A stretch of 64,000 nt of DNA from Chloroflexota bacterium (GTDB taxonomy: Bacteria > Chloroflexota > Dehalococcoidia > JACPQF01). The translations under genes and the position numbers were made by a program. This document shows positions 1,338 to 17,678 of the stretch, in pieces. Location of the stretch: positions 7,235-71,234 of the forward strand of contig JACPQF010000008.1 of the NCBI GenBank assembly GCA_016190625.1, in the 5' to 3' direction. How positions within the stretch are numbered: the stretch's first letter is position 1; every line of letters begins with the position of its first letter. Below the pieces are notes generated by a model. The model did not search any database. It was not told where the DNA came from and saw only the letters and a program-made list of their open reading frames with translations.

Positions 1338-2705
1338 ATGGTGGAGTCAGAACTTGATAGTGAAACGGGCGATCCTTCCAACGGAAGGACCATTGCTCCC
1401 TTGATCGAGCGAGAAGCACTTGCGCTCGCTGCCAGTTCCGAGTGCTTCGTCATCGACGGCGAACAGCGGCTCGAGGGAGAGGTTGAGATCAGCGGAGCCA
1501 AAAACGCCGCCTTGCCTGCCATGGCGGCGTCTTTGTTGACGGCGGACGAGTGCGTCGTCGATAACGTCCCCGATATCGAAGATGTTCACGTCATGGTCGA
1601 CGTGCTTCGTAGCCTCGGTGCGACTGCCGACCGCTTGAATGCTCACGGCTGGCGAATTTGTGCCGCCAAAGTGAACACCTTCGTCGCTCCCAGCCAGCTT
1701 GTCAAGCGGATGAGAGGCAGTTTTTTGGTCATGGGACCTCTTCTCTCGCGTTTTGGCGAGGCGGCTAGCTGCGCTCCCGGCGGGGACGTCATCGGCCAGC
1801 GTCCCATCGACGTCCATCTCGCGGGCTTCGCGGCCCTCGGAGCGCGCCTCTGGCAGGAGGGTGAGGATTATCACGCCGAGGCCAAGTCGCTGGTTGGCCG
1901 CAAGATCTTCATGGACTATCCCAGCCACATCGGCACGGAGAACCTGCTTATGGCTGCCGTCCTTGCCAAAGGGCGGACCACTCTTCTCAATGCCTCGTGC
2001 GAGCCCGAGGTTGTCGATCTGGCCAAGATGCTGAACGCCATGGGAGCGCGAATTCAGGGGGCTGGCACTAGCAGGGTGGAGATCGACGGAGTCTCCGAGC
2101 TTCATGGGGTCAGTCACCGGGTGATTCCCGACCGGCTGGAAGCAGGCACCTTCGCCATCGCCGCGGCGATTTCGCAGGGCGCAGTGACTGTGAAGAACGT
2201 CGTCTGCGGCCATCTGGAATCCCTCACTTGGAAGCTGGTCGAAACCGGCGCGCAGGCCCACGAAGGAAAGGACCGGCTTACCGTCGTCGGCAAGAGGCCG
2301 CTTCGGGGCGTGGCCATTCAGGCCCTTCCCTACCCCGGCTACGCCACCGACCTGCAGGCAGCGTTGGGAGTCCTCCTCACGCAGGCCGAAGGCAAGAGCA
2401 TGATCCATGAGCGGGTTTACGATAACCGGCTGCTTTACACGCACGAGCTGCGAAAGATGGGCGCCCAGATCGAGCTTATCATGCCCCAACTGGCCGTCAT
2501 TACCGGACCGACGACTTTGACTGGCACCACAGTCAGGTCTCTCGACATCAGGTCCGGGGCGGCGCTGGTTCTCGCCGCACTGGCTGCCCGGGACCAGACG
2601 ACCATTCTGGACATCTACCACCTCGATCGGGGATACGAGGGCTTCGACGCGAAGATGAAGAGCCTTGGAGCCAAGATCAGGCGCAGCCGAGTACCAGTCA
2701 GTTGA
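1338..2705 (+). CDS. murA: UDP-N-acetylglucosamine 1-carboxyvinyltransferase
   Basis: 455 aa with the EPT-family N-terminus (EISGAKNAALPAMAASLL) and full-length similarity to MurA; there is a ~35 aa N-terminal extension relative to typical MurA, so the true start may be downstream. Confidence 0.9.
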   Translation: MVESELDSETGDPSNGRTIAPLIEREALALAASSECFVIDGEQRLEGEVEISGAKNAALPAMAASLLTADECVVDNVPDIEDVHVMVDVLRSLGATADRLNAHGWRICAAKVNTFVAPSQLVKRMRGSFLVMGPLLSRFGEAASCAPGGDVIGQRPIDVHLAGFAALGARLWQEGEDYHAEAKSLVGRKIFMDYPSHIGTENLLMAAVLAKGRTTLLNASCEPEVVDLAKMLNAMGARIQGAGTSRVEIDGVSELHGVSHRVIPDRLEAGTFAIAAAISQGAVTVKNVVCGHLESLTWKLVETGAQAHEGKDRLTVVGKRPLRGVAIQALPYPGYATDLQAALGVLLTQAEGKSMIHERVYDNRLLYTHELRKMGAQIELIMPQLAVITGPTTLTGTTVRSLDIRSGAALVLAALAARDQTTILDIYHLDRGYEGFDAKMKSLGAKIRRSRVPVS

Positions 2706-2710
2706 CGGAC

Positions 2711-2738
2711 TTGACAAACGAGAAAAAACACTTATCAT
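2711..2738 (+). promoter_or_regulatory. sigma70-like promoter candidate (TTGACA-16 nt-TATCAT) in the murA-mreB spacer
   Basis: TTGACA at 2711-2716 and TATCAT at 2733-2738, read directly from the sequence. Confidence 0.35.
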
Positions 2739-2742
2739 GAAG

Positions 2743-2776
2743 GGCGCAGCCAGCTAAGGGCTGCGCCATCTTTCAC
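2743..2776 (+). terminator. GC-rich hairpin (9-bp stem GGCGCAGCC/GGCTGCGCC, 7-nt loop) followed by AUCUUUCA; terminator or attenuator between murA and mreB
   Basis: Perfect inverted repeat at 2743-2751 / 2759-2767 with a downstream T-rich run. Confidence 0.3.
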
Positions 2777-2826
2777 GCCTTGCAGCAGCCAGAGCGCTGC
2801 ACTCCCAAGCCACGATTGGAGGACCA

Positions 2827-3867
2827 ATGTTTACAAAGCGCGTCGGAATCGACCTGGGGACGGCCAACGTCCTCGTCTACGTAAAGGGCAAGGGCATCGT
2901 GCTCAACGAGCCATCCGTGGTGGCACTGGCTACCAACGAAAACCGGATCCTTTCCTTTGGTAACGATGCTCGTAGCATGCTGGGACGGACCCCGGGCAGC
3001 ATCTCCGTCATCCGCCCGATGCGAGACGGGGTGATAGCCGACTACATGATCACGGAGGCCATGCTCCGCCACTACATCGGGCGCGTCTGCGGCGGGCTGC
3101 GTCTGTCCAAACCCGAGGTCATGATCTGCATTCCGGCGGGCGTGACGAGCGTCGAGCAGAGGGCGGTGCGAGATGCCGCAGAACAGGCGGGAGCCAAGCG
3201 TCCAGCCTACTTGATTCCCGAGCCGCTGGCCGCCGCCATCGGCGCCAAGATTCCCATCGCCTCCCCGACCGGCAACATGGTCGTGGATATCGGCGGCGGG
3301 ACTACCGAGGCCGCCGTCATCTCCATGTACGGGATTGTCGTGAGCCAGTCCGTTAGGGTGGCCGGCAACCGCATCGACGAGGCAATCGTGGCGCACGTGC
3401 GGCGCAAGCACAATCTCATGATCGGGGACCGCACGGCAGAGGAGATTAAGATCGAGATCGGCAGCGCTTTGCCCCTGCCGAAGGAGGTAACCGCCGAGGT
3501 CAGAGGACGGGACCAGGTGAGCGGCCTGCCGAAGACCATCACCGTAACCTCGACGGAGGTGGCCCATGCCATTGCCGAGCCTCTCGCCGCCATCGTCGCC
3601 TCCGTGCGCTCGGTTCTGGAACAGACCCCTCCGGAGCTGGCCTCCGACGTGATAGACCGGGGCATGGTGCTTACGGGAGGAGGAGCCTTGCTGCGCAATC
3701 TCGACCGGCTGTTAACTCAGGAGACCGGCGTGCCGAGCCACGTCGCCGACCAGCCCATGAATTGCGTCGCCATCGGCGCCGGCCTCGCCCTCGAGCACCT
3801 GGAGATGATCAAACGCAATCTTCCCACCGACGAGCAGCCGCTGACCTCCGCCTGGGCATCGCAATAG
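2827..3867 (+). CDS. mreB: rod shape-determining protein MreB (actin homologue)
   Basis: 346 aa beginning [33 protein letters not shown] with a full-length actin/Hsp70-fold MreB signature; GGAGGA RBS upstream of the ATG. Confidence 0.93.
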
Positions 3868-3870
3868 GTC

Positions 3871-3886
3871 ATCTCCTCGGGGAGAT
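3871..3886 (+). terminator. small hairpin ATCTCC-TCGG-GGAGAT starting 4 nt after the mreB stop
   Basis: Perfect 6-bp palindrome with a tetraloop, lying between the convergent mreB and rex genes. Confidence 0.3.
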
Positions 3887-3896
3887 CGCGCTATGC

Positions 3897-3934
3897 GTAG
3901 GGGCGAACCCGCCGTCGTATGGATTCGCCCCTAC
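3897..3934. repeat. REP-like palindromic element, family A (GTAGGGGCGAA...TTCGCCCCTAC)
   Basis: 38-bp inverted repeat GTAGGGGCGAACCC...GGATTCGCCCCTAC. Related copies occur at 23643-23680, as the MITE termini at 27840/28041, and as half-sites at ~4713-4745 and ~35650. Confidence 0.6.
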
Positions 3935-4002
3935 GATGTGGTCCCACCCGCACATGTTCAGGAAAACCAACTTCGGCCTGCGCAGGCGATCTATCAACCG
4001 TT

Positions 4003-4695
4003 CTACGGCTCACCGCTCTCGGCGGCCTCCTTCGCTCCAGCGGAGGACTTGAGGTAGTAGGTCAGGCTCTGGAGGGCAACGACCGGATCGATGTGCCGCA
4101 CCTTCACGCCGGCGGGGACTCTTACGGCAATAGGCGCGTAGTTCAGGATGGCGGCGACCCCACAGGACGCCAGCACCTCGATGGTCTTTTGCCCGTGAGA
4201 GCCGGGGACGGCGACGATCGCTATTCTTATGTTCTTCTCGGCAATGGTCTGTTCAAGCTCGCCAACGTGCTGAATCCTCAAGCCGCCTATGAGCTCGCCG
4301 ACCTTGTTGGGATCCACGTCAAAGGCTGCCGCGAGCTTGAAGCCCTGGGTTTCGAAATCCTCGTAAGTGGCAATCGCCCGGCCGAGCTTGCCAACCCCAA
4401 TGAGCGCCATGGGCCATTCCCGGTCCAGCCCCAGGATGCGGCGAATCTCGCCCAGCAGCGATTGGACATTGTAGCCGCTTCCCTGCTTCCCAAACTCGCC
4501 GAAATAACTTAGGTCTTTGCGAATCTGCGCTGGCGTCACTCCCAATCGTCTTCCTAGGTCGAGAGAGCTTATAACCGCGACGTTCTCCTCCTCGAGAAAG
4601 GCGAGCGCCCGCGCGTAGATCGGCAGTCTTCTGATTACGACCTCCGGAATCTCCCAGGCACTGTTGTCCACTTCCTCCTCCTCCTTCATGACCAA
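4003..4695 (-). CDS. rex: redox-sensing transcriptional repressor Rex
   Basis: 230 aa with a winged-helix N-terminus (RRLPIYARALAFLEEENVAVISSLDLGRRLGVTPAQIRKDLSYFGEFGKQGSGYNV) and a Rossmann NADH-sensing domain (ALIGVGKLGRAIA). Confidence 0.9.
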   Translation of the reverse strand: MVMKEEEEVDNSAWEIPEVVIRRLPIYARALAFLEEENVAVISSLDLGRRLGVTPAQIRKDLSYFGEFGKQGSGYNVQSLLGEIRRILGLDREWPMALIGVGKLGRAIATYEDFETQGFKLAAAFDVDPNKVGELIGGLRIQHVGELEQTIAEKNIRIAIVAVPGSHGQKTIEVLASCGVAAILNYAPIAVRVPAGVKVRHIDPVVALQSLTYYLKSSAGAKEAAESGEP

Positions 4696-4930
4696 CCTGT
4701 AAAGCGAATCCTTCGGCGGAAAGATTCGCCCCTACGCTCGCCCCTAGAAATGCAGCCGAAAACTGGCAATATGCAGAGACCCGCGAATTCTGTCCCCACT
4801 AGGAGGTCTGAATTGTTTGCCAGACCTGCTGTTGCCCCCCTCATAGTGCCAAAAAGCGGATGCGATTCCCCACCGCTTGTTCTAAAGGGGCTTGTCGGCT
4901 GCGCGTCTAGGCCTGACAGTGACCATTCCA

Positions 4931-5671
4931 TCACTTGCCCGCCTGGACCCAATGACACACTCTTTTCTCCAACTGATCCAGAAGCACATAGATCGTGAAG
5001 CCGATGGCGCTCATCGCCACCACGGCGCTGTACATCATGGGATAATCGAAGACCTGCCAGGTATCCATGATGTAAAAACCCAATCCTGAGCGGGTGGCGA
5101 AGGACTCGGCCAGGTAGAGCACCGCCACCGCCGTACCGGTGCCAACCCGCAGAGCGGTTAACGTCGCCGGCAGGCAGGCTGGAATATAGACGAACCGTAG
5201 GATCTGCCATTTGCTGGCGCCGAGAGACCTGACCGAATACAGCAGCTCAGGCCTGACGGAATGCGAAGCGTCCCTCACCACCACCAATATCTGGAAGAAC
5301 AGGATCAAGGCGATCAAACATACTTTGCTTACGTCGCCAATGCCCAAAAGCATCACCATCACGGGCAGGAGAACGATCTTGGGCACGGGATAGGTAATGT
5401 AGATCAGCGGCGCGATTAAGCTGTCCAGACGCCGGCTCTGGCCGAGGATCAGCCCCAGCGGCACCGCCGACCCCACTGCCAATATCATGCCGGCGACTAG
5501 CCGCCAACCACTGACTATGATATGGATGCCCAGCGGCCCCCTCAGCCCACCAGCAAAGGCCGCCAACACCACCGCCGGGTCGGGAAGCACGCTGGACCGG
5601 AGAGCCAGGGCCAGAGCCTGCCAGGCAACAAGAAGGACGACCACCGCCAAAAGAACTGATCGTTTGCTCAA
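4931..5671 (-). CDS. ABC transporter permease, NitT/TauT (nitrate/sulfonate/bicarbonate) family
   Basis: 246 aa, six predicted TM segments and a BPD_transp_1-type EAA-like loop; 4-bp overlap with the upstream ATPase gene. Confidence 0.8.
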   Translation of the reverse strand: MSKRSVLLAVVVLLVAWQALALALRSSVLPDPAVVLAAFAGGLRGPLGIHIIVSGWRLVAGMILAVGSAVPLGLILGQSRRLDSLIAPLIYITYPVPKIVLLPVMVMLLGIGDVSKVCLIALILFFQILVVVRDASHSVRPELLYSVRSLGASKWQILRFVYIPACLPATLTALRVGTGTAVAVLYLAESFATRSGLGFYIMDTWQVFDYPMMYSAVVAMSAIGFTIYVLLDQLEKRVCHWVQAGK

Positions 5672-6408
5672 GTTCCGGACTCCCCCACCCTGCGCCTGAC
5701 TTCTTCACAGTTCCGATGAAAAGCCTCTTTTCCCCTGTAGTCGAGAGAGCGAGCTAGCGGATTCTCCAGCAAGTATGCCTTATCGATCGGCGGCTGGCCC
5801 ATAACAAGGATGCGTTTGCCGAGGAACACCGCCTCCTCGATATTGTGAGTCACGAGAACCGTCGTCAGGTCAGCATCATGGCTGAGGGCAACGACCAGAT
5901 TCTGGAGGCTCTCCCGTGTCAGGGCATCCAGCGAGCTAAAGGGCTCGTCCATTAGCAGAACGTGAGGGTCGAGGGCAAGGGTCCGGGCGATAGCCACGCG
6001 CTGCCTCTGCCCACCGCTCAGTTGGGCTGGGTAATGGCCACCGTGCGAGGCCAGACCAAGATCCTCGAGCCATCGCCGAGCCACCGCTCTCCTGACCTTG
6101 CCTCCCATCTGCCGCAGTTCGAGGCCCAATTCGACGTTCCCCAGAGCCGTCGCCCAAGGCAGCAAGCCGTAATCCTGGAGAATCAGTCCAATTGTCGGCC
6201 TCGGCTTCTCTAGAGGCTGGCCATCGACGACTATCCGGCCCGCCACGGGTCGGCGCAACCCGGCGAGAAGATAAAGCAGGGTTGTCTTGCCACAGCCGGA
6301 CGGCCCTATGATCGCCCAGTGTTCGCCCCGCTCGACTCGCCAGCCGAAACTCTGGAAGACTAGCGGGTGGTTTGGATAGGCAAACGACAGATCGTGAACC
6401 TCGATCAA
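5668..6408 (-). CDS. ABC transporter ATP-binding protein, NitT/TauT family
   Basis: Walker A GPSGCGKTT, ABC signature LSGGQRQRVAIARTLA and Walker B LLMDEPFSSLD. Confidence 0.85.
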   Translation of the reverse strand: MIEVHDLSFAYPNHPLVFQSFGWRVERGEHWAIIGPSGCGKTTLLYLLAGLRRPVAGRIVVDGQPLEKPRPTIGLILQDYGLLPWATALGNVELGLELRQMGGKVRRAVARRWLEDLGLASHGGHYPAQLSGGQRQRVAIARTLALDPHVLLMDEPFSSLDALTRESLQNLVVALSHDADLTTVLVTHNIEEAVFLGKRILVMGQPPIDKAYLLENPLARSLDYRGKEAFHRNCEEVRRRVGESGT

Positions 6409-6436
6409 TTAGGTGAAACTTCCAGTGACTAGTTCT

Positions 6437-7051
6437 TCAGTCGCCACTGCGGCGGTAACGATAGCTATTCTCCAGTCCGGTCGCGATCCCCAACGCGCCC
6501 AGAGCGCGACTGGCGATGTGCTCTACGACGTCGTCCACCGTCTTTGGCTCGGCGTAGAAAGCGGGAACTGGCAGCACGATTCTAACACCTGCCCTCGCCA
6601 GCGTCAACATGTTGGTCAAGTGTATTACGGACAGGGGAGACTCACGCGGAACGATGACGAGCGGTCTGGCCTCTTTGATCGTGACGTCGGCGGCCCGCTG
6701 AAGCAGATTTACCGATAGTCCGTGAGCGATCGCCGCCGCCGTGCCCATACTGCAGGGCACCACCACCATCCCTTTCGTTTCCGTCGTCCCGCTGGCTACC
6801 GGCGCTCCGACATCTCTTATGTCAACCATCATCACGCCCGCCGAAGACGCCCACGCGTCTATCGCGCCACCCATCTCGTGCTTCCACACCTCCGCCCCCG
6901 CATCGGTGCATACTAGGATAGGTCGCTCCCCCGCGTCGATCAATAGCTCGACGCTCCGCTTCGCCAGCACAGACCCGCTGGCGCCAGTTACCCCGACTAT
7001 GACAGGCTTCGGTTCTCCGGTCAAAACGTCCTCCCTGATTGCTCTCAGCAA
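6437..7051 (-). CDS. ubiX: flavin prenyltransferase UbiX family (flavoprotein)
   Basis: 204 aa; IVGVTGASGSVLAKRSVELL...VVVPCSMGTAAAIAHGLSVNLLQRAADVTIKEARPLVIVPRESPL matches UbiX/Pad1 along its length. Confidence 0.85.
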   Translation of the reverse strand: MLRAIREDVLTGEPKPVIVGVTGASGSVLAKRSVELLIDAGERPILVCTDAGAEVWKHEMGGAIDAWASSAGVMMVDIRDVGAPVASGTTETKGMVVVPCSMGTAAAIAHGLSVNLLQRAADVTIKEARPLVIVPRESPLSVIHLTNMLTLARAGVRIVLPVPAFYAEPKTVDDVVEHIASRALGALGIATGLENSYRYRRSGD

Positions 7052-7150
7052 TCAGCCATCAGCTTTCAGCTTCGGGTCAGGGGAAACACAACGGCACGAA
7101 TGCCAGCAAAATGTGTATTCCCTTCCTTCACCATGTCCTTCTCGGAAGGG

Positions 7151-7177
7151 CTGATGGTCCTTCTTGGAAGGACTGAG
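7151..7177. repeat. REP-like hairpin, family B (CTGATGGTCCTTC-N-GGAAGGACTGA)
   Basis: Palindrome CTGATGGTCCTTCTTGGAAGGACTGAG in the ubiX / next-gene divergent spacer. A second palindrome, CTGATTGCTCTCAGCAATCAG, lies just upstream at ~7047-7067. Confidence 0.5.
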
Positions 7178-7241
7178 CGCTGACAGTTACCCATTTTACA
7201 CGCGGCGAGGGCGCAGCACAAGGATGGGACCAATATAGGGG

Positions 7242-8525
7242 TTGACTACGCCTCATCTGGGCAGCTATAATCGACGCCGCTGGCTCTCGATGCAGCCGGA
7301 GGACGGGCAAATGGCAACAAGACCGAGACGCATTTCAATCTTACGACCAGTGGCGATCACCGTATTGGCGCTCGCCCTCGCCCTGATTCTCGAACGCCTC
7401 TCCTTCCCGTCGATCCCATTCTCCCTCTCGGCGGGGAACTCCGAGTTCAAGGCGGTCTACAGCGAGCTAAAAGGCTCTGAGAGCACGCTTTGGGCGGCAG
7501 ACCCGACCGAACCTCTGGGCCGTCGAAAAGCCATTCTGACCGTCAGCCACGCCTCCGGGTACGGCGTGCTCGCCAGCCTATCCCCTGACGGCGCCGGTCT
7601 AGCTTACGGGCTACTTCCAGAGGGACGGCGAGACGCTTTCTCCGACGGTCAGTTGTGGGTCGCTTCGGCCGACGGTCGTGGATCACGACTGATTGCCGGC
7701 AAGATGGACCTTCACTTCCCTCCCCTCTGGAGTCCCGATAGCAAGAGCCTTCTGTTCAAGACCATCGAGGTCGCGCCAGGCGGAAACCCGGACACTCGCC
7801 CTGTGTCCGACGGTGGGAAGCCCGACCAAAGGCCATACGATCTCAACTTCAGGAGCAGTCTCGTGGTTGTCTCGCCTGATGGCCCGGCAAGAGTGCGAGC
7901 CATCGTTTCATCGTCGGATCCGAATCTCTACCCCATCGGTTGGTCGACTGATGGCAAGAGCACGTATTACTACACGGTCGAGGCCGACGGCTCGCAGGCT
8001 CACCTCGTCGACGTCGCTACTGCCGAGACGAGAAGGCTCGGACTGCTGTCCGGCGGGCCAGTTTGGAGTGTAAAGCTTTCTCCCGACCGGCGCCGGCTTC
8101 TTTTCCTTGCGGTACAAGCAAGCGACTCGGCAACACGTGGCACCGTCTGGGTATTCGACCAAGATACGGGGCATTCCTTTCAGGTCGGGGCCACGCAACC
8201 GGGACCGCTTGGCGCCATCTGGCATCCTTCCGGCGACCAGGTCACCAGTAACACAAGCCAAGGACCTTCTCGGCCTGGCCAAACGCTTCTTAACACGAAC
8301 ATGGCGAGCGGCGCAACTCAGACTTTCGGCGAGAACGGCGAAGGAACAATTGCCGTTCCTCTTTCTTGGTCACCAGATTCCAACTTCCTCGCCGTCCGGC
8401 GACGGTCCACGGCAACGAATGACCCGCCGGATGTCCTCGCCGTTCTCGACACGAGGTCGGGCCAACTGAAAGAGATCAAGGGCGGATATGCAGAATTCGT
8501 GGGGTGGACGACTTCTTCAAGATGA
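7242..8525 (+). CDS. membrane-anchored or secreted protein with TolB/WD40-like beta-propeller repeats
   Basis: Hydrophobic N-terminal segment (ISILRPVAITVLALALALIL), then repeated WSPDG/WSTDG/WSPDS blades typical of TolB-like propellers; the start is uncertain. Confidence 0.5.
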   Translation: MTTPHLGSYNRRRWLSMQPEDGQMATRPRRISILRPVAITVLALALALILERLSFPSIPFSLSAGNSEFKAVYSELKGSESTLWAADPTEPLGRRKAILTVSHASGYGVLASLSPDGAGLAYGLLPEGRRDAFSDGQLWVASADGRGSRLIAGKMDLHFPPLWSPDSKSLLFKTIEVAPGGNPDTRPVSDGGKPDQRPYDLNFRSSLVVVSPDGPARVRAIVSSSDPNLYPIGWSTDGKSTYYYTVEADGSQAHLVDVATAETRRLGLLSGGPVWSVKLSPDRRRLLFLAVQASDSATRGTVWVFDQDTGHSFQVGATQPGPLGAIWHPSGDQVTSNTSQGPSRPGQTLLNTNMASGATQTFGENGEGTIAVPLSWSPDSNFLAVRRRSTATNDPPDVLAVLDTRSGQLKEIKGGYAEFVGWTTSSR

Positions 8526-9789
8526 AAAGTGGCGCCGGAAAGCAATTCGACTGGCCGTCGACCTCGTCTCGCTGGCCCTCCTGACCCTGCTCTTCCGGTC
8601 GGCACTGGCCCTGGCCATCGGTGGAGATTCGGGTTGCGCCAATACTGGCGTACAAGATGCTTACCAACCGCGGGTTATGGAGCTTTCCAACGCGCTCGCT
8701 TCTGCAGCGAGTGGCAACCTGGGCACCAACTACGAGCCCATCGGCAGTCTCTGGTCGGGCTATCCGAATCAGAGTCTGGTACCCGCTTCGATTCCCTGCA
8801 CCATACTGAAATCGATCGCTTACATCGAAAGCGGCTGGCGCCAAGCAAGTACAGCACCGCGAGGTTCGTCTGGTGAGCCTCTGGTTTCATACAGTTGTGG
8901 GTACGGCGTCATGCAGATAACCTCGCCCATGACGGCTCCCGGACCGGGCAGTGGATTGCTCGATCCTGCCAGGCAACAACGCGTTGCCCGTGAATACACG
9001 TTCAACGTTAGCTACGGCGCCAAGATGCTTGTCGACAAATGGAATTGGACACCAGTCATCGGCGGCAACAATCCCGCCATCCTCGAGAATTGGTATTATG
9101 CCGTCTGGGCCTACAACGGATGGACGTGGAAAAACAATCCGAATAACCCATCCTACGATCCATTCCGTCCGCAATACAATGGCAGCCCGGGACAGAGCTA
9201 TCTGCAATATCCTTATCAAGAGTTGGTCTGGGGCCGGGCGGCCAATCCACCGACCATCGACGGGATTGTCGCATGGACGCGGGCAGACATCACTCTACCA
9301 CCGAGCAACCAGATAACGAACCCACCTGGTCAAATCGCAGACCCACAGCTTACGCATACCGAGACCTGCTCGAGCACGCCACCGCCGACGCTCACCCCTA
9401 CACCAACTCGTACAGCCACGCCCACCTACACGCCCACGCCGACGGCTATGCCCCTGCCGCTGCTGCAGGCCTCCACCAATTACATCGGCTTCCTTGCCGA
9501 ACCCGGGCAGACCCCAGGGCCGCAGACTCTCACCCTAACCGGCAACCGATCCAGCATCGTTTGGTCTGTTCAATCGCCCCCTCCTTGGATTACCGCCGTT
9601 CCCACCGGTGGAGAAAGCCTGCCTGCCAGCGTGAGGATCTCGGCCGGCCCTTGGAGCACCCCAGATTCCCGTTCGGGGTCGATCCGCATCCAGAATGCGC
9701 ACAACCCGAGCCAGAACAACCTGCTGGTGAGCATCTACCAATATCTAGGCTCCCTCAGCAAGCTGCGCTTTCCGCTGGTGTACAGGTAG
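8488..9789 (+). CDS. secreted lytic-transglycosylase (SLT/lysozyme-like) domain protein with a Pro/Thr linker and a C-terminal beta-sandwich domain
   Basis: Signal/TM region (LAVDLVSLALLTLLFRSALALAIG). SLT-like motifs: ILKSIAYIESGW (catalytic E-S), GYGVMQIT, NVSYGAKML, AYNGW. PT-rich linker TPTPTRTATPTYTPTPTA. Ends with the tail LSKLRFPLVYR; the start overlaps the previous ORF and is uncertain. Confidence 0.55.
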   Translation: MQNSWGGRLLQDEKWRRKAIRLAVDLVSLALLTLLFRSALALAIGGDSGCANTGVQDAYQPRVMELSNALASAASGNLGTNYEPIGSLWSGYPNQSLVPASIPCTILKSIAYIESGWRQASTAPRGSSGEPLVSYSCGYGVMQITSPMTAPGPGSGLLDPARQQRVAREYTFNVSYGAKMLVDKWNWTPVIGGNNPAILENWYYAVWAYNGWTWKNNPNNPSYDPFRPQYNGSPGQSYLQYPYQELVWGRAANPPTIDGIVAWTRADITLPPSNQITNPPGQIADPQLTHTETCSSTPPPTLTPTPTRTATPTYTPTPTAMPLPLLQASTNYIGFLAEPGQTPGPQTLTLTGNRSSIVWSVQSPPPWITAVPTGGESLPASVRISAGPWSTPDSRSGSIRIQNAHNPSQNNLLVSIYQYLGSLSKLRFPLVYR

Positions 9790-9879
9790 CGGAGGGCTTG
9801 GGGTTTCGCGGCCTAGCATCCGGCCTGAGGGGCGTGCTGTCACCCGATTGGAGAACGGATTGTACGGAAAGAGCTAGTA

Positions 9880-9917
9880 TCCGTTCAATCCGATCCCGAA
9901 TCCGTTGACAGCAGACC
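9880..9917 (+). promoter_or_regulatory. conserved 38-bp element (TCCGTTCAATCCGATCCCGAATCCGTTGACAGCAGACC) upstream of hicBA; second copy at 31336-31373
   Basis: 34/38 nt identical to the copy upstream of vapBC. Contains an embedded TTGACA; further TTGACA hexamers and an AAGAATC direct repeat follow before hicB. Confidence 0.5.
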
Positions 9918-10052
9918 TGCGTGGGGCAGGCGCCGTGAAATCTTGATGCCCATCTTGACAGAGCCAATCCTTGACAACGGTAGCTCACGCCGATTATCCT
10001 AAGAATCGTAAGAATCTCGCGGTTCCTGGCGCGCAGAAGGGGGGCCTGGACT

Positions 10053-10268
10053 ATGCATAATGAGTTTACCGCCATCCTTGAGCGCGATGGCGAGTGGTTC
10101 GTCGCCTATTGTCCCGAGATTCCTGGGGCAAACGGACAAGGTCACACGAAGAAAGAGGCTCTGGACAACTTGGCCGATGCAATCGAGCTCATATTGGAAG
10201 ACCGGCGCGAAGATGGTCTGAGGGGTGCGCCGGAAGGTGCTATTCGAGAAATCGTGACCATTGGATGA
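10053..10268 (+). CDS. hicB: HicB-family antitoxin (UPF0150, RNase H-like fold)
   Basis: 71 aa MHNEFTAILERDGEWFVAYCPEIPGANGQGHTKKEALDNLADAIELILEDRRE is a typical short HicB; its stop TGA overlaps the hicA ATG (ATGA). Confidence 0.85.
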   Translation: MHNEFTAILERDGEWFVAYCPEIPGANGQGHTKKEALDNLADAIELILEDRREDGLRGAPEGAIREIVTIG

Positions 10269-10459
10269 AACGCCATGAGCTCCTACAGCATTTGCGAACG
10301 AATGGCTGCTATCTGAAACGCGAAGGCCGTTCGCACTCGCTCTGGACCAATCCGCAAACAGGGCAAGTCGAGGCGATTCCACGCCACGTAGAGATCGCCG
10401 ATAAGTTGGCCGTGAAGATCTGTCGAAGGCTGTCGGTCCCCAACGTCAAGAAAACGTAA
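10265..10459 (+). CDS. hicA: HicA-family mRNA interferase toxin
   Basis: 64 aa MKRHELLQHLRTNGCYLKREGRSHSLWTNPQTGQVEAIPRHVEIADKLAVKICRRLSV (YcfA/HicA dsRBD-like fold). This frame is embedded in six-frame ORF 10094..10459; the start was chosen at the ATG overlapping the hicB stop. Confidence 0.85.
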   Translation: MKRHELLQHLRTNGCYLKREGRSHSLWTNPQTGQVEAIPRHVEIADKLAVKICRRLSVPNVKKT

Positions 10460-10592
10460 GAGAGGACCACGCAGGTCCGGCGAGCGTGGGACAGTGCCAG
10501 CCCCCTTGTCTTGTCTGACGCAGTCGCTCTTGCTACCATCACATGCCAAACACCGATCCCGGCGCTCTGCCCGGACGGATCGGCTGTCTGCA

Positions 10593-10622
10593 TTGACAGA
10601 CACACCCTTCCTCGCCTATAAT
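10593..10622 (+). promoter_or_regulatory. near-consensus sigma70 promoter (TTGACA-18 nt-TATAAT) for comB
   Basis: TTGACA at 10593-10598 and TATAAT at 10617-10622; a G-rich SD (GGGGGAGGGGGGAAG) then the ATG at 10643. Confidence 0.6.
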
Positions 10623-10642
10623 CCGCAGGGGGAGGGGGGAAG

Positions 10643-11449
10643 ATGATTGTCGAAGTGGCCGTGCTTCCTCAGATGCTTCGTGGCGTCGAGCGGAAGACCT
10701 GCATCATCGTCGACGTGCTGCGGGCTAGCACCACGCTGGTGACGATGCTGGAGCGCGGGGCGGAGACGATTCGCCTGGCGGCTGGCGTCGACGAGGCGCG
10801 GGATCTCTTCCGAAGCCGACCCGGCGCCCTGCTCTGCGGCGAACACGGCGGCCTTGCCCCCGCCGGGTTTCACCACGGGAACTCCCCCGTCGAGTACTGC
10901 TCCCTCGATCTGAGGGGAAAAGAGGTCGTCTTCGCCACAAGCAATGGGACAAAGGCGCTGACCGCCGTGGCTGGCTCGCCTGGCGTTCTCATCGGCTGCT
11001 TTCGCAACGCTTCGGCGGTGATCGACACTGCTCTGGCGGCCGGGCGGGATATCGCCCTAGTATGCTCGGGTCGGGCCAGCGGCACAGCCTACGGCCTCGA
11101 CGACGTCTTCTGCGCTGGCTACTTGGTAGGCAGGATAATGGCGCACGTCGAGATCAACGATGCATCGCCGTCCGAAGCGGACATCGCCCGGCTGGTTTCC
11201 AGCGGCGAGTTCGAGACAGAGGGCTGGTACCTCGACGAGTCAGCTATGGCGGCCCACCGCCTGTGCACGACCTATCGAGACGACGTTTTGGCGGCGTTCA
11301 GAGACAGCGGCAACGGGAAACATCTGATTCAACTGGGATTGGAAAGCGATTTGCATTTCTGCGGAGAAGTGGATACCAGCCGGGTGGTGCCAATGCTGGC
11401 TGGCTCAGAAGGCGGGCTTCGGGTCGTCAAGAGGGCTGAAGTTGCCTGA
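10643..11449 (+). CDS. comB: 2-phosphosulfolactate phosphatase (ComB) family protein
   Basis: 268 aa; CIIVDVLRASTTLVTMLERGA...FATSNGTKAL...DDVFCAGYLV matches the ComB family fold and motifs. Confidence 0.8.
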   Translation: MIVEVAVLPQMLRGVERKTCIIVDVLRASTTLVTMLERGAETIRLAAGVDEARDLFRSRPGALLCGEHGGLAPAGFHHGNSPVEYCSLDLRGKEVVFATSNGTKALTAVAGSPGVLIGCFRNASAVIDTALAAGRDIALVCSGRASGTAYGLDDVFCAGYLVGRIMAHVEINDASPSEADIARLVSSGEFETEGWYLDESAMAAHRLCTTYRDDVLAAFRDSGNGKHLIQLGLESDLHFCGEVDTSRVVPMLAGSEGGLRVVKRAEVA

Positions 11450-11863
11450 TTCGAAGGGGTCGAGAGCCTTCGCATCAGCCATTTTCAGCCCCCTTCACCC
11501 GCAGCTTGAGATAGCTACCGAGTAGTGCGGGTTATGATGTCGTAGGAGCGGTGTCCTTCCGCAGAAGGATGACCGCCCCCTTGGCCGCCACGGAGGGACG
11601 GCCACCACGGCATCAACAAGACCCAAATTACTCGGTACGAGCTAGTCAGCGTTCTTCAAAAAGGACGCTAGCACGCCTCCCCGGCAATCTCCATGTGCCT
11701 GTTAGGCTACCAAGAAGAACATTACCACTATGTGGCCACACCGGGCTGGCATGCGCCGGCAGGGCCGTCTTGCCGCGGGGTTTTGGCACGCGTCCTGCAT
11801 CGGATAGAGGACTCTTTCCGGAAGGCCAGCCAGTAGGGCTACAGTCTCATTAAGGATAATGCG

Positions 11864-13105
11864 ATGTTGTACTTATCTCAAATCATCGGGCGATCGATAC
11901 GCGATCGCCAGAACGAGGCCATCGCCACCATCAAAGACCTCATCGTCCGCCTTGGCGAGGAGGCTTATCCTCCCGTGGTCGGACTGATCGCGAGAACCGG
12001 GGCCAGGGATTTCTTTGTCCCCTGGGTGCAGGTTGCCGAGCTGACGGAGCGGGGCGCCAAGTTGTCCACGTTCAAAGTCAACCTTGAGCCTTTTGCCCGT
12101 CGCGACGGAGAGGTTCTCCTCACGAGGGACGTGTTGGACAAACAGCTTGTGGATGTGAACGGCCGGCGGGTAGTTAGAGTCAACGACCTTCAGTTGGCGC
12201 CTGTCGACAGCGAGGTAAGAGTAGTGGGAGTAGACGTAAGTCCCCAGGCCATCCTCCGGAGGCTCGGACCAGCCTCGTTGTTTGGTAAGCTGCAAAGCCG
12301 CGAGATAATCGATTGGGCTAACGTCGAGTACCTTGTCACCCACGCGCCAGCCGTGCGCCTGAAGATGTCTCACGAGCGCCTGTCCAAGCTCCACCCGGTC
12401 GATATCGCCAGGATCATCGATTCCCTGTCCTATCATCAGGGCGCCGAGATCGTCGGATCGCTGGACACAGCCACTGCCGCCGACACCATCGAGGAGATGA
12501 GTCCCGAACGACAGGTCGATATCGTCGAGGGCATGGAAGAGGAGAAGGCAGCCGACATCCTGGAGGAGATGGCGCCCGACGAGGCCGCAGACATCCTCGC
12601 CGAGCTTTCCGAAGAGAAAGCCGAGGACCTGCTCGAGCTCATGGACGAGGAAGAGGCCGATGACGTCAGAGAGCTCATGGAATATGAGGAGGATACCGCC
12701 GGTGGAATCATGACGACCGACTTCGCGGCAATCCCCTCTTCGTCCACCGTGGGCGAGGCCATCGAGCACATTCGGCGGCTGGAGGAGAAGCCTGATTTCC
12801 TCTTCTACGTCTATGTGGTCGAGAGCGAAACAGATGGCCGCCTGGTTGGGGCCGTCTCATTGAGGGACCTCCTATTGGCGGAGCCAACGGAGCTAATTGT
12901 CGACGTCATGCAACGCGAACTGAGGGTCGGCAACGCCGACGACTCCGCTCGCGATGTCGCTCGCAAGATCGCCGAATACAACCTGCAGGCTCTTCCCGTG
13001 GTGGACGACAAAGAAGAGATCCTCGGCGTCGTCACCTTGGACGATGCGATGGAGATCATTTTGCCAGAGCCGTGGCGACGGCGTCTCCCCAAGGTTTTCC
13101 GATGA
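11864..13105 (+). CDS. soluble PRC-barrel + MgtE-N + tandem CBS domain protein (MgtE-like cytoplasmic Mg2+-sensing module lacking the transmembrane domain)
   Basis: N-terminal PRC-barrel-like region (DVNGRRVVRVNDLQLAPVDSEVRVVGVDV). Acidic helical MgtE-N region (IARIIDSLSYHQGAEIVGSLDTATAADTIEEMSPERQVDIVEGMEEEKAADILEEMAPDEAADILAEL). CBS pair (AGGIMTTDFAAIPSSSTVGEAIEHIRR...AVSLRDLL...LPVVDDKEEILGVVTLDDAM). No hydrophobic segments. Confidence 0.8.
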   Translation: MLYLSQIIGRSIRDRQNEAIATIKDLIVRLGEEAYPPVVGLIARTGARDFFVPWVQVAELTERGAKLSTFKVNLEPFARRDGEVLLTRDVLDKQLVDVNGRRVVRVNDLQLAPVDSEVRVVGVDVSPQAILRRLGPASLFGKLQSREIIDWANVEYLVTHAPAVRLKMSHERLSKLHPVDIARIIDSLSYHQGAEIVGSLDTATAADTIEEMSPERQVDIVEGMEEEKAADILEEMAPDEAADILAELSEEKAEDLLELMDEEEADDVRELMEYEEDTAGGIMTTDFAAIPSSSTVGEAIEHIRRLEEKPDFLFYVYVVESETDGRLVGAVSLRDLLLAEPTELIVDVMQRELRVGNADDSARDVARKIAEYNLQALPVVDDKEEILGVVTLDDAMEIILPEPWRRRLPKVFR

Positions 13106-13125
13106 TCTCTAATCAGGAGAGATAG

Positions 13126-14463
13126 TTGCCGGACGATAGCAAGACCTCTGCGGGCGGGCTGCCCGAAGGAGAGAAAGGGACGAGCGCTGGCCAGCCCGTC
13201 CCGGAGGCACCGGCGCGGCGGCTCGCGGCCACACGACGCGATGTGCTGACGTATCTCGCCATTCTGGGGCCGGGCATTATCGCCGCCGTGGCAGGCAACG
13301 ACGCCGGTGGCATCGCGGTGTACTCTCACGCCGGCGCGGCCTTCGGCTATCAGTTGCTCTGGGCGCTCGCCATCATCACCATCAGCTTGATCGTCGTCCA
13401 GTTGATGAGCGCCCGCATGGGCGCCGTCACCGGCAAGGGATTGGCGGACCTCGTTCGGGAGGAGTTCGGCATCCGTTGGACGGCGCTGGCCATGCTGGCT
13501 CTGCTAGTCGCCAACGGCGGCACCACCATTGCCGAGTTCGCCGGCATCGCCGCTGCCGCCGAGTTGCTGGGTATCAGCCGCTACATCGCCGTTCCCTTGA
13601 TGGGCCTCTTCATCTGGCTAGTGGTTGTCCGCGCTTCCTATCGAACGGCAGAACGGATCTTCTTGACCCTGTCGGCTGTCTTCGCCGTCTACTTCATCGC
13701 CCCCTTTCTTGCCCATCCGGACTGGAACGTAGTCATTAGGTCCACTGCAGTGCCCTCATTCAACGTCAGTGCTGGCTTTCTGACAGCCATCATCACGCTG
13801 GTCGGCACTACCGTAACGCCCTACATGCAGCTCTTCGTCCAGTCGGCGGTCGTGGACAAAGGAGTAACCATCCGTGATTATCGCTTCGCCCGCCTCGACG
13901 TGATCTTCGGCTCGGTTTTCGCTATCTTCGTAGCCTTCTTCATCATCGTAACCACCGGAACAATTCTCCATCCGGAGGGAATTGCCGTGGAAACCGCCGA
14001 GGATGCCGCCAAAGCGCTGGCGCCTCTGGCGGGCGAATACGCTACCATCCTATTCGCCGTCGGTCTGTTTGGCGCCTCGATGCTGGCGGCCAGCATCCTG
14101 CCGCTTTCGACCGCCTACGCTACCTGTGAGGCTTTCGGCTGGGAGAGAGGAGTGTCGAAGGGGTTCGGCGAGGCCCCGGTCTTCAACGGGCTGTACACGG
14201 GGCTGATAGCTCTCTCCGTGCTGGTGGTCCTGCTCCCCGGACTACCACTCATCGGCGCCATCATCCTGAGCCAGTTCATCGACGGCCTCCTGCTTCCCGT
14301 CGTTCTCGTCTTCATGCTCAAGCTGAGCAACAACCGGGAAGTGATGGGCGACCACGTGAACGGCCCCTGGTTCAACCTCATCGCCTGGTCGACGGCAGTT
14401 GTCCTCATCGCCCTGTCAGCCGTCCTGCTGGCAACCTCGCTGGCCGGGATGCTGCCCATCTAG
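13126..14463 (+). CDS. Nramp/SLC11-family transporter with non-canonical metal-site residues
   Basis: 445 aa, about 11 TM segments; TM1 GPGIIAAVAGNDAGGIAVYSHAGAAFGYQLLW and TM6 VGTTVTPYMQLFVQSAVV. TTG start with an AGGAGAG SD 21 nt after the stop of the upstream MgtE-N/CBS gene. Confidence 0.85.
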   Translation: MPDDSKTSAGGLPEGEKGTSAGQPVPEAPARRLAATRRDVLTYLAILGPGIIAAVAGNDAGGIAVYSHAGAAFGYQLLWALAIITISLIVVQLMSARMGAVTGKGLADLVREEFGIRWTALAMLALLVANGGTTIAEFAGIAAAAELLGISRYIAVPLMGLFIWLVVVRASYRTAERIFLTLSAVFAVYFIAPFLAHPDWNVVIRSTAVPSFNVSAGFLTAIITLVGTTVTPYMQLFVQSAVVDKGVTIRDYRFARLDVIFGSVFAIFVAFFIIVTTGTILHPEGIAVETAEDAAKALAPLAGEYATILFAVGLFGASMLAASILPLSTAYATCEAFGWERGVSKGFGEAPVFNGLYTGLIALSVLVVLLPGLPLIGAIILSQFIDGLLLPVVLVFMLKLSNNREVMGDHVNGPWFNLIAWSTAVVLIALSAVLLATSLAGMLPI

Positions 14464-15917: not shown

Positions 15918-17678
15918 CTACCTTAGCGTCAGCGGGAAATGGAGTTTGCTCAACCCGCCGCCATCCGGTCCGGCGATGGTAGAGGTCCAGGCCGAGGAGC
16001 TGCTGGGGAAGGGCCGGACGTTCCCGGCGTTATCCGTCGCCCTCACACGAAAATAGTAGGTGCGCCCGGCTGTTCCGTCAAGAAACAGGCTGGATGTACT
16101 AGTGGTCCCGGTTAGCCACGAACGCCACGCGCCCGACGAACCCTCCTTGAACTGGAGGTCAGAGGAGGCAATGCCAGAGGGACTATCTGACCCCTGCCAG
16201 GCCACCCTGAACCAGGTGCGGGCCTGCGTCGGCGACAGAGAGACCATAGAGGAAGTCGGGGCGATGGCGTCCACCGTCGTAACCGCATCGCCATTCCCGC
16301 CGGCATAGGTCCCGACGTCGCCGGCGTTATCGGTCGCTCTCGACTGGAAGTAGTAGGTTTGGCCCTGGCCACCAGCAAATGAGGCCGACATGGCCGTGGT
16401 CTGCGTGAGCCAGTCCTGCCAGTTCCCCCCGGCGAGCTTATATTGGACGTCGTAGCTCTGGATGCCGGTCCCGCTCCTGTCGGTCCCGGACCAGCTAACC
16501 GTGAAGGATATCGTCCTCTGATAGGTGGCGAGGCTGGCCACGGCGGCGGTCGGCGGCAGGGATTTCGGCATGCTCTTTAGCGCCGAGTAGGCCAGACGAA
16601 ACTTGATGGCGTTGGTGCCGGGGCTGCAGGGGTTGTCCCGGTAGGTTAGCGAGTAGTAGCGCATGGGATTGCACATGTTGGTATTGCCAGGGCAGCCAGC
16701 CTGATAGTAGTCGGCGCCGAAGTCGAGGTTGAAGACGAACATGGCCCCCATCCAGGACCAGTTGGCAAGCGCATAGTTAAAGGCTCTGACCAGGTAGTCC
16801 GCCTGGGTAGGTTCGCCTACCTTCTGCCAGTTCCGGTCGGGCCAGTCGCAGCCCGTATCGAGCAGCCAGCCAAACTCGGTGGCCCAGATCGGCTTCCCGC
16901 CATCGCCGTTGGCTGCCATCACCGCGTATTGTTGCTCGGCCCGACGGAAAGCCAATCCGGAGGCCGCGCCCGGATCGTACTCCGGGGGATAAGCAAAGCC
17001 ATAGGGATGAGAGCCGAGGACGTCGAAGTAGCCGCGGGCGCCGGCGTTGTACATCTGTTGAATGAAATCCAGATCGTCCAGGGCAAAGCCGCCATGCTCG
17101 CCATTGGTCGCCAGCCCGGCAGTGACCACGAGAGCGTTGGGATCGCCGGCCTTGATTCGCCCGTAAACCGCCTGAAGCATCTGGGCGTAACGCCCGGGGT
17201 CGGGCGCGCCGCCGCCCCATTCCGAGGCGAGGTTTGGCTCGTTCCAGATCTCGTAGGCGGTGACCTTGCCTCGCAAATGGCTCGCCAGGGCGTAGAGAAA
17301 GTCGCCGAAATCGTTCAGGTTGGACGGCGGCGCCGTGCCTCCCACGCCATTTTCCCAGGCAGGCGCACCATCCACGCGAATAAGTAGTTGGAGGTTCCTG
17401 CCTTGCGCCGCATTGGCGATGTTGTCGGCATCGTTAGCACGACCACCGTTCCAGGCATAGTCGCCTTTGGAAAACTCGCTGCGGGCCCAGGACAGGCCTA
17501 CCTTCATGTAGCCAAAGCCCAGATCGGACACATAGGCGGAGTTGGCGAGGTCGGCGACGCTTACGCCGTAGCCGAGGGGGCCGGCTCTAGCAGTGGCGCT
17601 GGCAGCGCGGCGGGCAGACTGAGGCGGCAAGATGGCCATGGCCACTATCAGAACCGGTAAAACCCAGCGCACCAGCAA
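15918..17678 (-). CDS. secreted glycoside hydrolase (clan GH-A, cellulase/GH5-like) with two C-terminal Fn3-like beta-sandwich domains
   Basis: Signal peptide MLVRWVLPVLIVAMAILPPQSARRAAS. Catalytic-acid motif VTAYEIWNEPNL. Two repeated ~90-aa domains ending YYFQSRATDNAGDVG and YYFRVRATDNAGNV. Ends with the tail LSKLHFPLTLR. Confidence 0.75.
   Translation of the reverse strand: MLVRWVLPVLIVAMAILPPQSARRAASATARAGPLGYGVSVADLANSAYVSDLGFGYMKVGLSWARSEFSKGDYAWNGGRANDADNIANAAQGRNLQLLIRVDGAPAWENGVGGTAPPSNLNDFGDFLYALASHLRGKVTAYEIWNEPNLASEWGGGAPDPGRYAQMLQAVYGRIKAGDPNALVVTAGLATNGEHGGFALDDLDFIQQMYNAGARGYFDVLGSHPYGFAYPPEYDPGAASGLAFRRAEQQYAVMAANGDGGKPIWATEFGWLLDTGCDWPDRNWQKVGEPTQADYLVRAFNYALANWSWMGAMFVFNLDFGADYYQAGCPGNTNMCNPMRYYSLTYRDNPCSPGTNAIKFRLAYSALKSMPKSLPPTAAVASLATYQRTISFTVSWSGTDRSGTGIQSYDVQYKLAGGNWQDWLTQTTAMSASFAGGQGQTYYFQSRATDNAGDVGTYAGGNGDAVTTVDAIAPTSSMVSLSPTQARTWFRVAWQGSDSPSGIASSDLQFKEGSSGAWRSWLTGTTSTSSLFLDGTAGRTYYFRVRATDNAGNVRPFPSSSSAWTSTIAGPDGGGLSKLHFPLTLR

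Follow-up and report, generated by a model that had tools for sequence, protein, structure and literature searches.

A short C-terminal tail shared by two unrelated secreted proteins of a Chloroflexota bacterium may represent a new sorting or attachment signal

The stretch of DNA analysed here (the window) comprises 64,000 nucleotides, with 60% G+C, from a Chloroflexota bacterium of the Dehalococcoidia (GenBank assembly GCA_016190625.1, contig JACPQF010000008.1, positions 7,235 to 71,234 of the forward strand); it encodes two unrelated secreted proteins that end with nearly the same short peptide, the tail that is the subject of this work. Protein 1 is produced by an open reading frame (ORF) on the plus strand (8488-9789; 433 amino acids, ending ...LGSLSKLRFPLVYR-TAG). 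Its N-terminal hydrophobic signal or anchor (residues ~18-44) is followed by a lysozyme/SLT-like catalytic domain (residues ~45-298; nucleotides 8620-9381), a Pro/Thr linker (residues 299-318) and a BACON/immunoglobulin-like (Ig-like) domain (residues 326-420; nucleotides 9463-9747; Pfam BACON, 2.7e-07). The protein is identical to NCBI entry HYX94_00605, and a 68%-identical orthologue is named “transglycosylase SLT domain” by NCBI; the Pfam SLT match (0.0032) is below the cut-off. Foldseek searches with the model of protein 1 gave matches to the Ig-like domain and none to the catalytic domain, so that the lysozyme-like assignment comes from the weak Pfam match and the source annotation. Protein 2 is coded on the minus strand (15918-17678; 586 amino acids, ending ...GGGLSKLHFPLTLR-TAG) and is identical to a “cellulase family glycosylhydrolase” that NCBI lists in the same metagenome-assembled genome as HYX94_00605. 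It contains a signal peptide, a GH5-type TIM barrel (nucleotides ~16572-17573; Pfam Cellulase, 2.6e-06), two fn3 domains (~16329-16550 and 15975-16286; Pfam fn3, 1.4e-05) and a Gly-rich linker that precedes the tail.

The last 11 residues are LSKLRFPLVYR in protein 1 and LSKLHFPLTLR in protein 2, each followed directly by the stop codon. Both ORFs and both tails are as described in an earlier note on this DNA, made from the sequence alone, which had proposed a shared tail on two unrelated secreted proteins. As for its position in protein 1, which the note gave as 9757-9789, the end is correct but the start is not: 11 residues and the stop codon occupy 9754-9789, and 9757 is already the Ser. 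The tail considered below is slightly longer and is documented by the sequence, a position-specific scoring matrix (PSSM) and the AlphaFold models. It corresponds in protein 1 to residues 421-433 (GSLSKLRFPLVYR; 9748..9786, plus strand), with the motif core KLRFPLVYR at 9760-9786 and the stop codon at 9787-9789, and in protein 2 to residues 574-586 (GGLSKLHFPLTLR; 15921..15959, minus strand), with the stop codon at 15918-15920.

The resemblance of the two C-termini stands out among the 52 long ORFs of the window: the pair shares 8 of its 11 last residues, the other 1,325 ORF pairs share at most 5, and no further ORF within the window bears the tail. BLASTP comparison of the two proteins aligns the terminal 13 residues alone, 9 of them identical. 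At the DNA level the tail-coding segments are identical at 24 of 36 positions, synonymous codons differ at four of the eight conserved residues (CTC/TTG, AAG/AAA, CTG/CTC and TTT/TTC), and a repeat finder detected no DNA repeat connecting the two sites. Pair statistics, BLASTP, synonymous codons and the absence of a DNA repeat thus indicate a real similarity that does not extend beyond the tail and is preserved at the level of the protein, as had been proposed; a recent duplication of the DNA is ruled out by the codon differences, and a recently duplicated C-terminal domain does not agree with a similarity confined to 13 residues. The AlphaFold models (mean predicted local distance difference test, pLDDT, 86.9 for protein 1 and 82.8 for protein 2) place the tail of protein 1 as coil after the last Ig-like strand, with pLDDT ~50-70, while the last 14 residues of protein 2 have pLDDT <50 and no secondary structure. 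As modelled, the tail is an appended flexible peptide that lies outside the folded domains and takes part in no fold.

Homologues of both enzymes reveal a broader motif. The best 120 homologues of each protein were collected, those of protein 1 coming almost all from Chloroflexota metagenome bins, and many proteins of these relatives bear the tail. Its general form is [KR]-x-[YF]-[LFIV]-P-[LFIWY]-hydrophobic-x-[KR], placed 0-10 residues before the stop codon; a strict pattern occurs within the last 20 residues of 40/120 protein 1 homologues and in 6/1936 internal stretches of 20 amino acids. Examples of endings are KLYLPFIIRD, RSYLPLVPKRAPLPPPR, LYFPLVVR and HKYLPIVWK among protein 1 homologues, and GGPKAYLPLAVRNR, GPYKGYLPLVYKGS, RAYLPAVFKNYLSP and FHLYLPLIIKEYN among GH5 homologues of protein 2. 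Logos made separately for the SLT and GH5 families are concordant: relative to an invariant Pro at position 0, they have K/R at -4, Y/F at -2, L/F/I/V at -1, L/F/I/W/Y at +1, V/I/L/A/T at +2 and K/R at +4, with 0-10 unconserved residues beyond +4. The nearest relative, a syntenic 16-kb contig (L081), carries orthologues of both proteins that end LRTLRFPLIYKQSTVPAN and LSRMYLPLSLKSSAIY; the LSKL prefix and the terminal Arg, which had been taken as conserved elements, are thus local details, the former specific to the lineage and the latter often followed by 0-10 extra residues in other carriers.

The motif is independent of the catalytic domain, as the earlier note had supposed: similarity between the window proteins stops at 13 residues, and in homologues the tail is modular, following a bare catalytic domain, BACON, fn3 or CarboxypepD_reg domains or Pro/Thr linkers. 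An N-terminal hydrophobic segment is found in 83/102 carriers of the two enzyme families, the rest being probably truncated fragments; another transmembrane-like segment beyond the N-terminus is present in just 1/102. A PSSM was trained on the tails of the two query families and gives scores of 16.8 for protein 1 and 18.8 for protein 2, while none of 15,894 internal sequence windows reaches 16. Across 1.29 Mb of genome loci, with gene calls that are simple longest-ORF calls, a score of at least 12 is reached by 1.1% of ORF C-termini, versus 0.03% of internal windows and 0.05% of the C-termini of rejected-frame ORFs; most of the C-terminal matches belong to the query family itself, and these rates therefore indicate that only a small number of proteins in each genome carry the tag.

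On this basis we define here a “YLPL-type” tail as [KR]-x-[YFHR]-[LFIVM]-P-[LFIWY]-hydrophobic-x-[KR], no more than ~15 residues from the stop codon, outside folded domains, on a protein with a signal peptide. PSSM scores, N-terminal hydrophobic segments and the disorder of the tails in the models place both window proteins within this definition. A subgroup of short SLT homologues (L005, L013 and L014; P0020, P0024, P0026, P0032, P0038, P0044 and P0045) has a longer and highly conserved ending, C-x-x-P-D-P-[YF]-[IV]-P-x-[IV]-[AS]-[ED]-R-x-[GP]-L-D-[WY]-R; this longer variant combines a hydrophobic-hydrophobic-Pro core with a fixed “GLDWR” terminus.

A profile of 10 residues is too short to reach significance in large protein databases; for this reason a metagenome collection was scanned for the codons of K-x-Y-L-P-L-x-x-R, independently of protein family, and at least 120 matches were obtained. 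Among the matches listed, the number of residues from motif to stop shows a sharp peak at 0-3, and 13 of 45 de-duplicated matches in long ORFs lie no more than 12 amino acids from the stop codon, where uniform placement predicts 1.84 (Poisson p 8e-8); the three residues that the pattern leaves unspecified are hydrophobic in these C-terminal matches (e.g., KVYLPLVVR and KIYLPLVMR) and random in the internal ones. The scan thus arrives independently at the logo of the two enzyme families. Viral contigs searched with the same pattern as a negative control gave 20 matches, 7 of them in long ORFs and none of these 7 near the stop. Carriers recovered by the scan are diverse: a cupredoxin of 147 amino acids, two subtilases (one with PA and CHRD domains, the other with NHL repeats and PA14), a beta-helix/DUF11 protein of 1,067 amino acids and a Sortilin/BNR/PKD protein of 1,373. 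Signal peptides were found in all 7 scan-derived carriers with complete N-termini. Further carriers are an S8+PPC subtilase in locus L029, two adjacent tailed paralogues in L158 and, in the complete Anaerolineae genome L222, a beta-helix fragment adjoining a tailed GH5. On metagenome contig L223 (region 2655-14033), three PMT_2/STT3-type glycosyltransferase genes flank a tailed GH5 gene, which hints that this PslG-like GH5 acts on a locally made cell-surface glycan.

The motif is real and modular; it is strongly enriched at C-termini, is located outside folded domains, is confined to proteins with signal peptides and is present in several Chloroflexota classes. Its range was surveyed in 80 genome loci that contain protein 1 homologues: a clear tail occurs in 17, all of them from Chloroflexota (Dehalococcoidia, Anaerolineae, Roseiflexus, Longilinea, Candidatus Aquidulcis and unclassified bins). 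It is found in 0 of ~16 SLT homologues from Myxococcota or “Proteobacteria”, most of which end with a Cys-rich stretch, a transmembrane helix and an Arg cluster; one of these homologues, P0100, matches MYXO-CTERM in NCBIfam with 24.4 bits against a cut-off of 20, which also served as a positive control. Since the Myxococcota homologues bear MYXO-CTERM at the equivalent position, sorting tags look interchangeable between phyla. Four contigs labelled “uncultured Rickettsiales” or “Hyphomicrobiales” (L023, L025, L029 and L058) contain SLT homologues with MYXO-CTERM-like ends, and L029 also encodes the subtilase with the Chloroflexota-type tail mentioned above; the taxonomic labels of these bins look unreliable.

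A second exchange is seen in the cupredoxins (P0241-P0254; L103:504-947). Five tailed members, in which the tail lies directly behind the last cupredoxin strand, have a Gly exactly where their closest tail-less homologues, from Thermoflexus and others, have the lipobox Cys (LA[AT]A-C). Taken together, the alternation with MYXO-CTERM and the loss of the lipobox suggest, at the level of sequence, that the tail may stand in for a recognised surface anchor. The tail-less lipoprotein cupredoxins share a C-terminal ending of a different kind, ...KPAPASGYDY.

In its behaviour the tail is like the known lineage-specific C-terminal sorting signals, but it lacks the features that define them. Pfam and NCBIfam contain no sorting-signal model that matches the window proteins or six canonical carriers, the NCBIfam searches of both having been made at E<=10; the searchable literature, queried also with literal tail strings, gave nothing on the tail, although an earlier mention elsewhere is possible. 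LPXTG signals of Gram-positive bacteria resemble it in their C-terminal position on Sec-exported surface enzymes and adhesin-like proteins, in their modularity across unrelated families, in the core (Leu/Phe-Pro-x-(Thr/Val/Ile) in the tail, e.g., FPLTLR and YLPLTLR) and in the basic residues after the motif. However, a sortase signal consists of an LPXTG (or LAXTG/NPQTN) motif, a transmembrane helix and a basic tail and extends for ~35 residues, whereas the Chloroflexota tail has ~10 and no membrane-spanning helix, with just 2-3 hydrophobic residues past the Pro; moreover, its consensus [LF]P[LFI][VIAT]x, represented in the window by FPLVY and FPLTL, lacks the conserved Gly at position 5. PEP-CTERM, PGF-CTERM, GlyGly-CTERM and MYXO-CTERM are likewise lineage-specific C-terminal tags on many unrelated secreted proteins, but they are tripartite (motif, transmembrane helix and Arg cluster) and are read by an intramembrane enzyme, i.e., exosortase, archaeosortase, rhombosortase or myxosortase; the tail has neither the helix nor a match to an NCBIfam model, so that its separation from LPXTG, PEP-CTERM and GlyGly-CTERM, already proposed in the earlier note, is borne out.

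The C-terminal domain of the type IX secretion system (T9SS) of Bacteroidota is a phylum-restricted tag that marks diverse secreted hydrolases without a transmembrane helix, as the tail does; it is, however, a folded beta-sandwich of ~70-100 residues serving an outer-membrane translocon, while the Chloroflexota tail is disordered, 11-14 amino acids long, modelled as coil at low pLDDT and without any match of the Por_Secre_tail type in Pfam or NCBIfam. In the Braun lipoprotein Lpp, a very short C-terminal element with a basic end provides wall attachment without a transmembrane helix, through a C-terminal Lys that L,D-transpeptidases link to peptidoglycan. The basic residue of Lpp must be the last one. 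This is the case for both window tails (Arg) and for 10 scan matches among those listed, but most homologues end 1-10 residues past the basic residue, including the closest orthologues, P0002 and P0122, and the conserved part of the tail is the upstream Tyr-Leu-Pro-Leu core. Tags read by PDZ domains (Tsp/CtpA, DegS-type), which have a free hydrophobic residue at a fixed position of the C-terminus, differ as well, the C-termini of the tails being Arg/Lys or polar and 0-10 residues past the motif. Because of this variable terminus, the tail is not a terminal tag of the PDZ type and is probably not one of the Lpp type. The closest analogy in function may be offered by KDEL/HDEL and by the type 1 peroxisomal targeting signal (PTS1, -SKL), in which a very short linear peptide at the C-terminus is read by a dedicated receptor whatever the fold of the cargo; these, however, work inside eukaryotic cells and require the exact C-terminus, whereas the Chloroflexota motif can be followed by 0-10 residues and its site of action would be outside the cytoplasmic membrane.

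Chloroflexota are monoderm, often filamentous bacteria, abundant in soils, sediments, aquifers and wastewater sludge, where they are major polymer degraders. To our knowledge, the means by which their secreted enzymes are kept at the cell surface are not understood, and the tail-bearing proteins examined show no standard anchor signal. A new sorting or attachment signal, as first proposed, is a plausible role for the tail; of the two findings that the earlier note had named as counter-evidence, a lack of other carriers and a recent duplication of a C-terminal domain, neither was borne out. We infer that the tail acts after export, mediates retention and has a dedicated partner. More precisely, there is about an even chance that, after export, it serves in sorting or retention and is recognised by a putative envelope factor specific to Chloroflexota. 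Export of the carrier through Sec would leave the disordered tail exposed behind a flexible linker; the exposed tail would then be recognised by a putative Chloroflexota-specific component of the envelope, either a receptor to which it docks or an enzyme of the processing or transpeptidase-like kind, and the recognised protein would be kept at the cell surface rather than diffusing off. The invariant Pro and the fixed register of the flanking charges point to recognition by a protein and not to bulk hydrophobicity, and the variable trailing residues indicate that the free carboxylate is not the feature that is read. These residues could be a leaving group, should the motif be cut internally by an enzyme; non-covalent docking and covalent processing would both agree with these observations.

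A wider proposal, that the tail constitutes a new class of bacterial sorting signal, i.e., a linear peptide of ~10 residues without a transmembrane segment, read outside the cytoplasmic membrane by dedicated Chloroflexota machinery, is put forward tentatively and somewhat below even chances. In such a class, a receptor or a transpeptidase-like enzyme could attach or retain hydrolases, proteases, adhesin-like proteins and electron carriers at the surface. Judging from the sequences collected, the tail is much more general than one window and appears as a phylum-wide tag on many kinds of exported protein. If the retention role is correct, the motif would allow the surface-retained exoproteome of the whole phylum to be predicted from metagenomes by a rule of sequence, and would offer phylogenetic profiling a handle on the machinery; if the signal works without a membrane helix, it would also differ in principle from sorting by sortase and exosortase and could serve as a compact tag in surface display.

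Several points weigh against a retention signal with a dedicated partner. No recognising enzyme or receptor was found: the neighbourhoods of the carriers contain no recurrent sortase-, peptidase- or transpeptidase-like gene, and no sortase Pfam family was present among the annotated neighbourhoods read. The 5-6 hydrophobic residues of the tail are too few to span a membrane, which leaves no direct analogy with known mechanisms. The exchange of anchors in cupredoxins concerns a single lineage; tail-less GH5 homologues show no obvious alternative anchor, and the contrast between lipobox and tail is uninformative in both the SLT and the GH5 families. Restriction to Chloroflexota is based on the named homologues and loci alone and not on the metagenome carriers. 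Finally, protein 1 is possibly held already by an uncleaved N-terminal helix, as its model would allow, and a retention tail would be redundant there.

The same observations admit other explanations. An extracytoplasmic protease (S41/Ctp-, HtrA-type or other) might clip the tail for maturation or activation, or read it as a degron that limits the lifetime of hydrolases that may be dangerous. The variable, unconserved extension of 0-10 residues does resemble a leaving group, many of the carriers (SLT-like proteins, GH5, subtilases) have a lytic or degradative activity, and the tail is disordered and accessible in the AlphaFold models; yet the protein ends with basic or polar residues whose distance from the motif varies, in contrast to the degrons read by PDZ domains, no protease gene is linked to the carriers in their neighbourhoods, and the cupredoxin, a small electron carrier, has the tail in place of a lipid anchor, in better agreement with retention than with degradation. 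A tag for processing or turnover is considered unlikely.

Lower still is the probability we assign to a docking site for a chaperone or foldase that would keep large exported proteins export-competent or aid their folding outside the cell. A hydrophobic core flanked by basic residues resembles the generic motif of DnaK-type binding, and prolyl isomerases of the FKBP and parvulin types prefer Leu/Phe-Pro sites. The composition of the tail (basic, two hydrophobic residues, Pro, two hydrophobic residues, basic) agrees with this explanation, as does the size of many carriers, very large multidomain proteins of 600-1400 amino acids. A generic chaperone site, however, would need neither the invariant Pro nor the fixed charge register nor the strict C-terminal position; the tail is found also on a cupredoxin of ~140 amino acids, and its apparent restriction to one phylum favours a dedicated partner.

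An anchor that needs no partner at all is likewise improbable: here the tail itself would be a minimal membrane-interface anchor, whose aromatic and aliphatic residues enter the cytoplasmic membrane at its outer leaflet while the flanking Lys/Arg bind anionic lipid head-groups or wall polymers. Such an anchor would account for the basic-hydrophobic-basic layout, for the lack of a partner gene in the neighbourhoods examined and for the cupredoxin lineage that swapped its lipid anchor for the tail; against this, interfacial hydrophobicity scales would predict a weak membrane affinity of 5-6 hydrophobic residues broken by a Pro, and the invariant Pro with the position-specific preferences around it points to protein recognition. 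Finally, the probability that chance or a shared structural element, such as the last Ig-like strand or a duplicated C-terminal domain, accounts for the similarity is negligible and this explanation is effectively refuted by the results: although an Ig-like domain (BACON or fn3) stands shortly ahead of the tail in both window proteins, BLASTP similarity covers only 13 residues, Pfam domains stop short of the tail, AlphaFold models coil beyond the last strand in both proteins, the tail follows also bare catalytic domains, a cupredoxin and Pro/Thr linkers, and the remaining ORF pairs do not exceed 5/11 shared residues.

The ORFs of the 80 genome loci (1,267 in number) were clustered, and the sole recurrent neighbour of the SLT-like gene is an upstream PD40/TolB-like propeller, sometimes fused with it. 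As a partner of the tail this protein was discarded, being unrelated to the tail. In the window the propeller gene (7242-8525, plus strand) codes for a beta-propeller with an N-terminal membrane segment and overlaps by 38 nucleotides the start of the SLT-like gene (8488-9789, plus strand); the pair is kept in most Chloroflexota loci, and the two form one fused protein in L019, L024, L026 and L030, suggesting a two-component wall-remodelling unit.

A different type of ending, ...F-x-[IV]-G-x-P-G-T-S-R-A-x, which is not present in the window, characterizes distant Chloroflexota homologues of protein 1; such C-termini (...GxPGTSRA) occur on the SLT homologues of L036, L043, L048, L059, L067, L068 and L070-L074. 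Directly downstream of SLT homologues in 13 loci lies a gene for DUF6391, a protein of ~165 amino acids with two hydrophobic segments and a conserved N-H-x-L-E-H (HxxEH) motif. DUF6391 was rejected as the enzyme processing the tail: it is absent from both the window and its syntenic relative and accompanies instead the homologues ending in GxPGTSRA, with which it may form a second lineage-specific combination of a tail and a small membrane protein.

Between the SLT-like gene and the next operon the window contains a probable hicBA toxin-antitoxin pair (10053-10459, plus strand), comprising a UPF0150/HicB-like ORF (10053-10265) and a HicA ORF (10265-10459; score of 26.5 bits, gathering score 27); the pair is absent from the syntenic relative L081. 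Upstream of it, starting 46 nucleotides past the SLT-like stop codon, an inverted repeat (9835-9913) has arms of 34 nucleotides that are 82% complementary. Rfam matched no RNA family anywhere in the window; the inverted repeat has an RNA fold z-score of -2.46 and may represent either a hairpin of the terminator type or a small repeat element.

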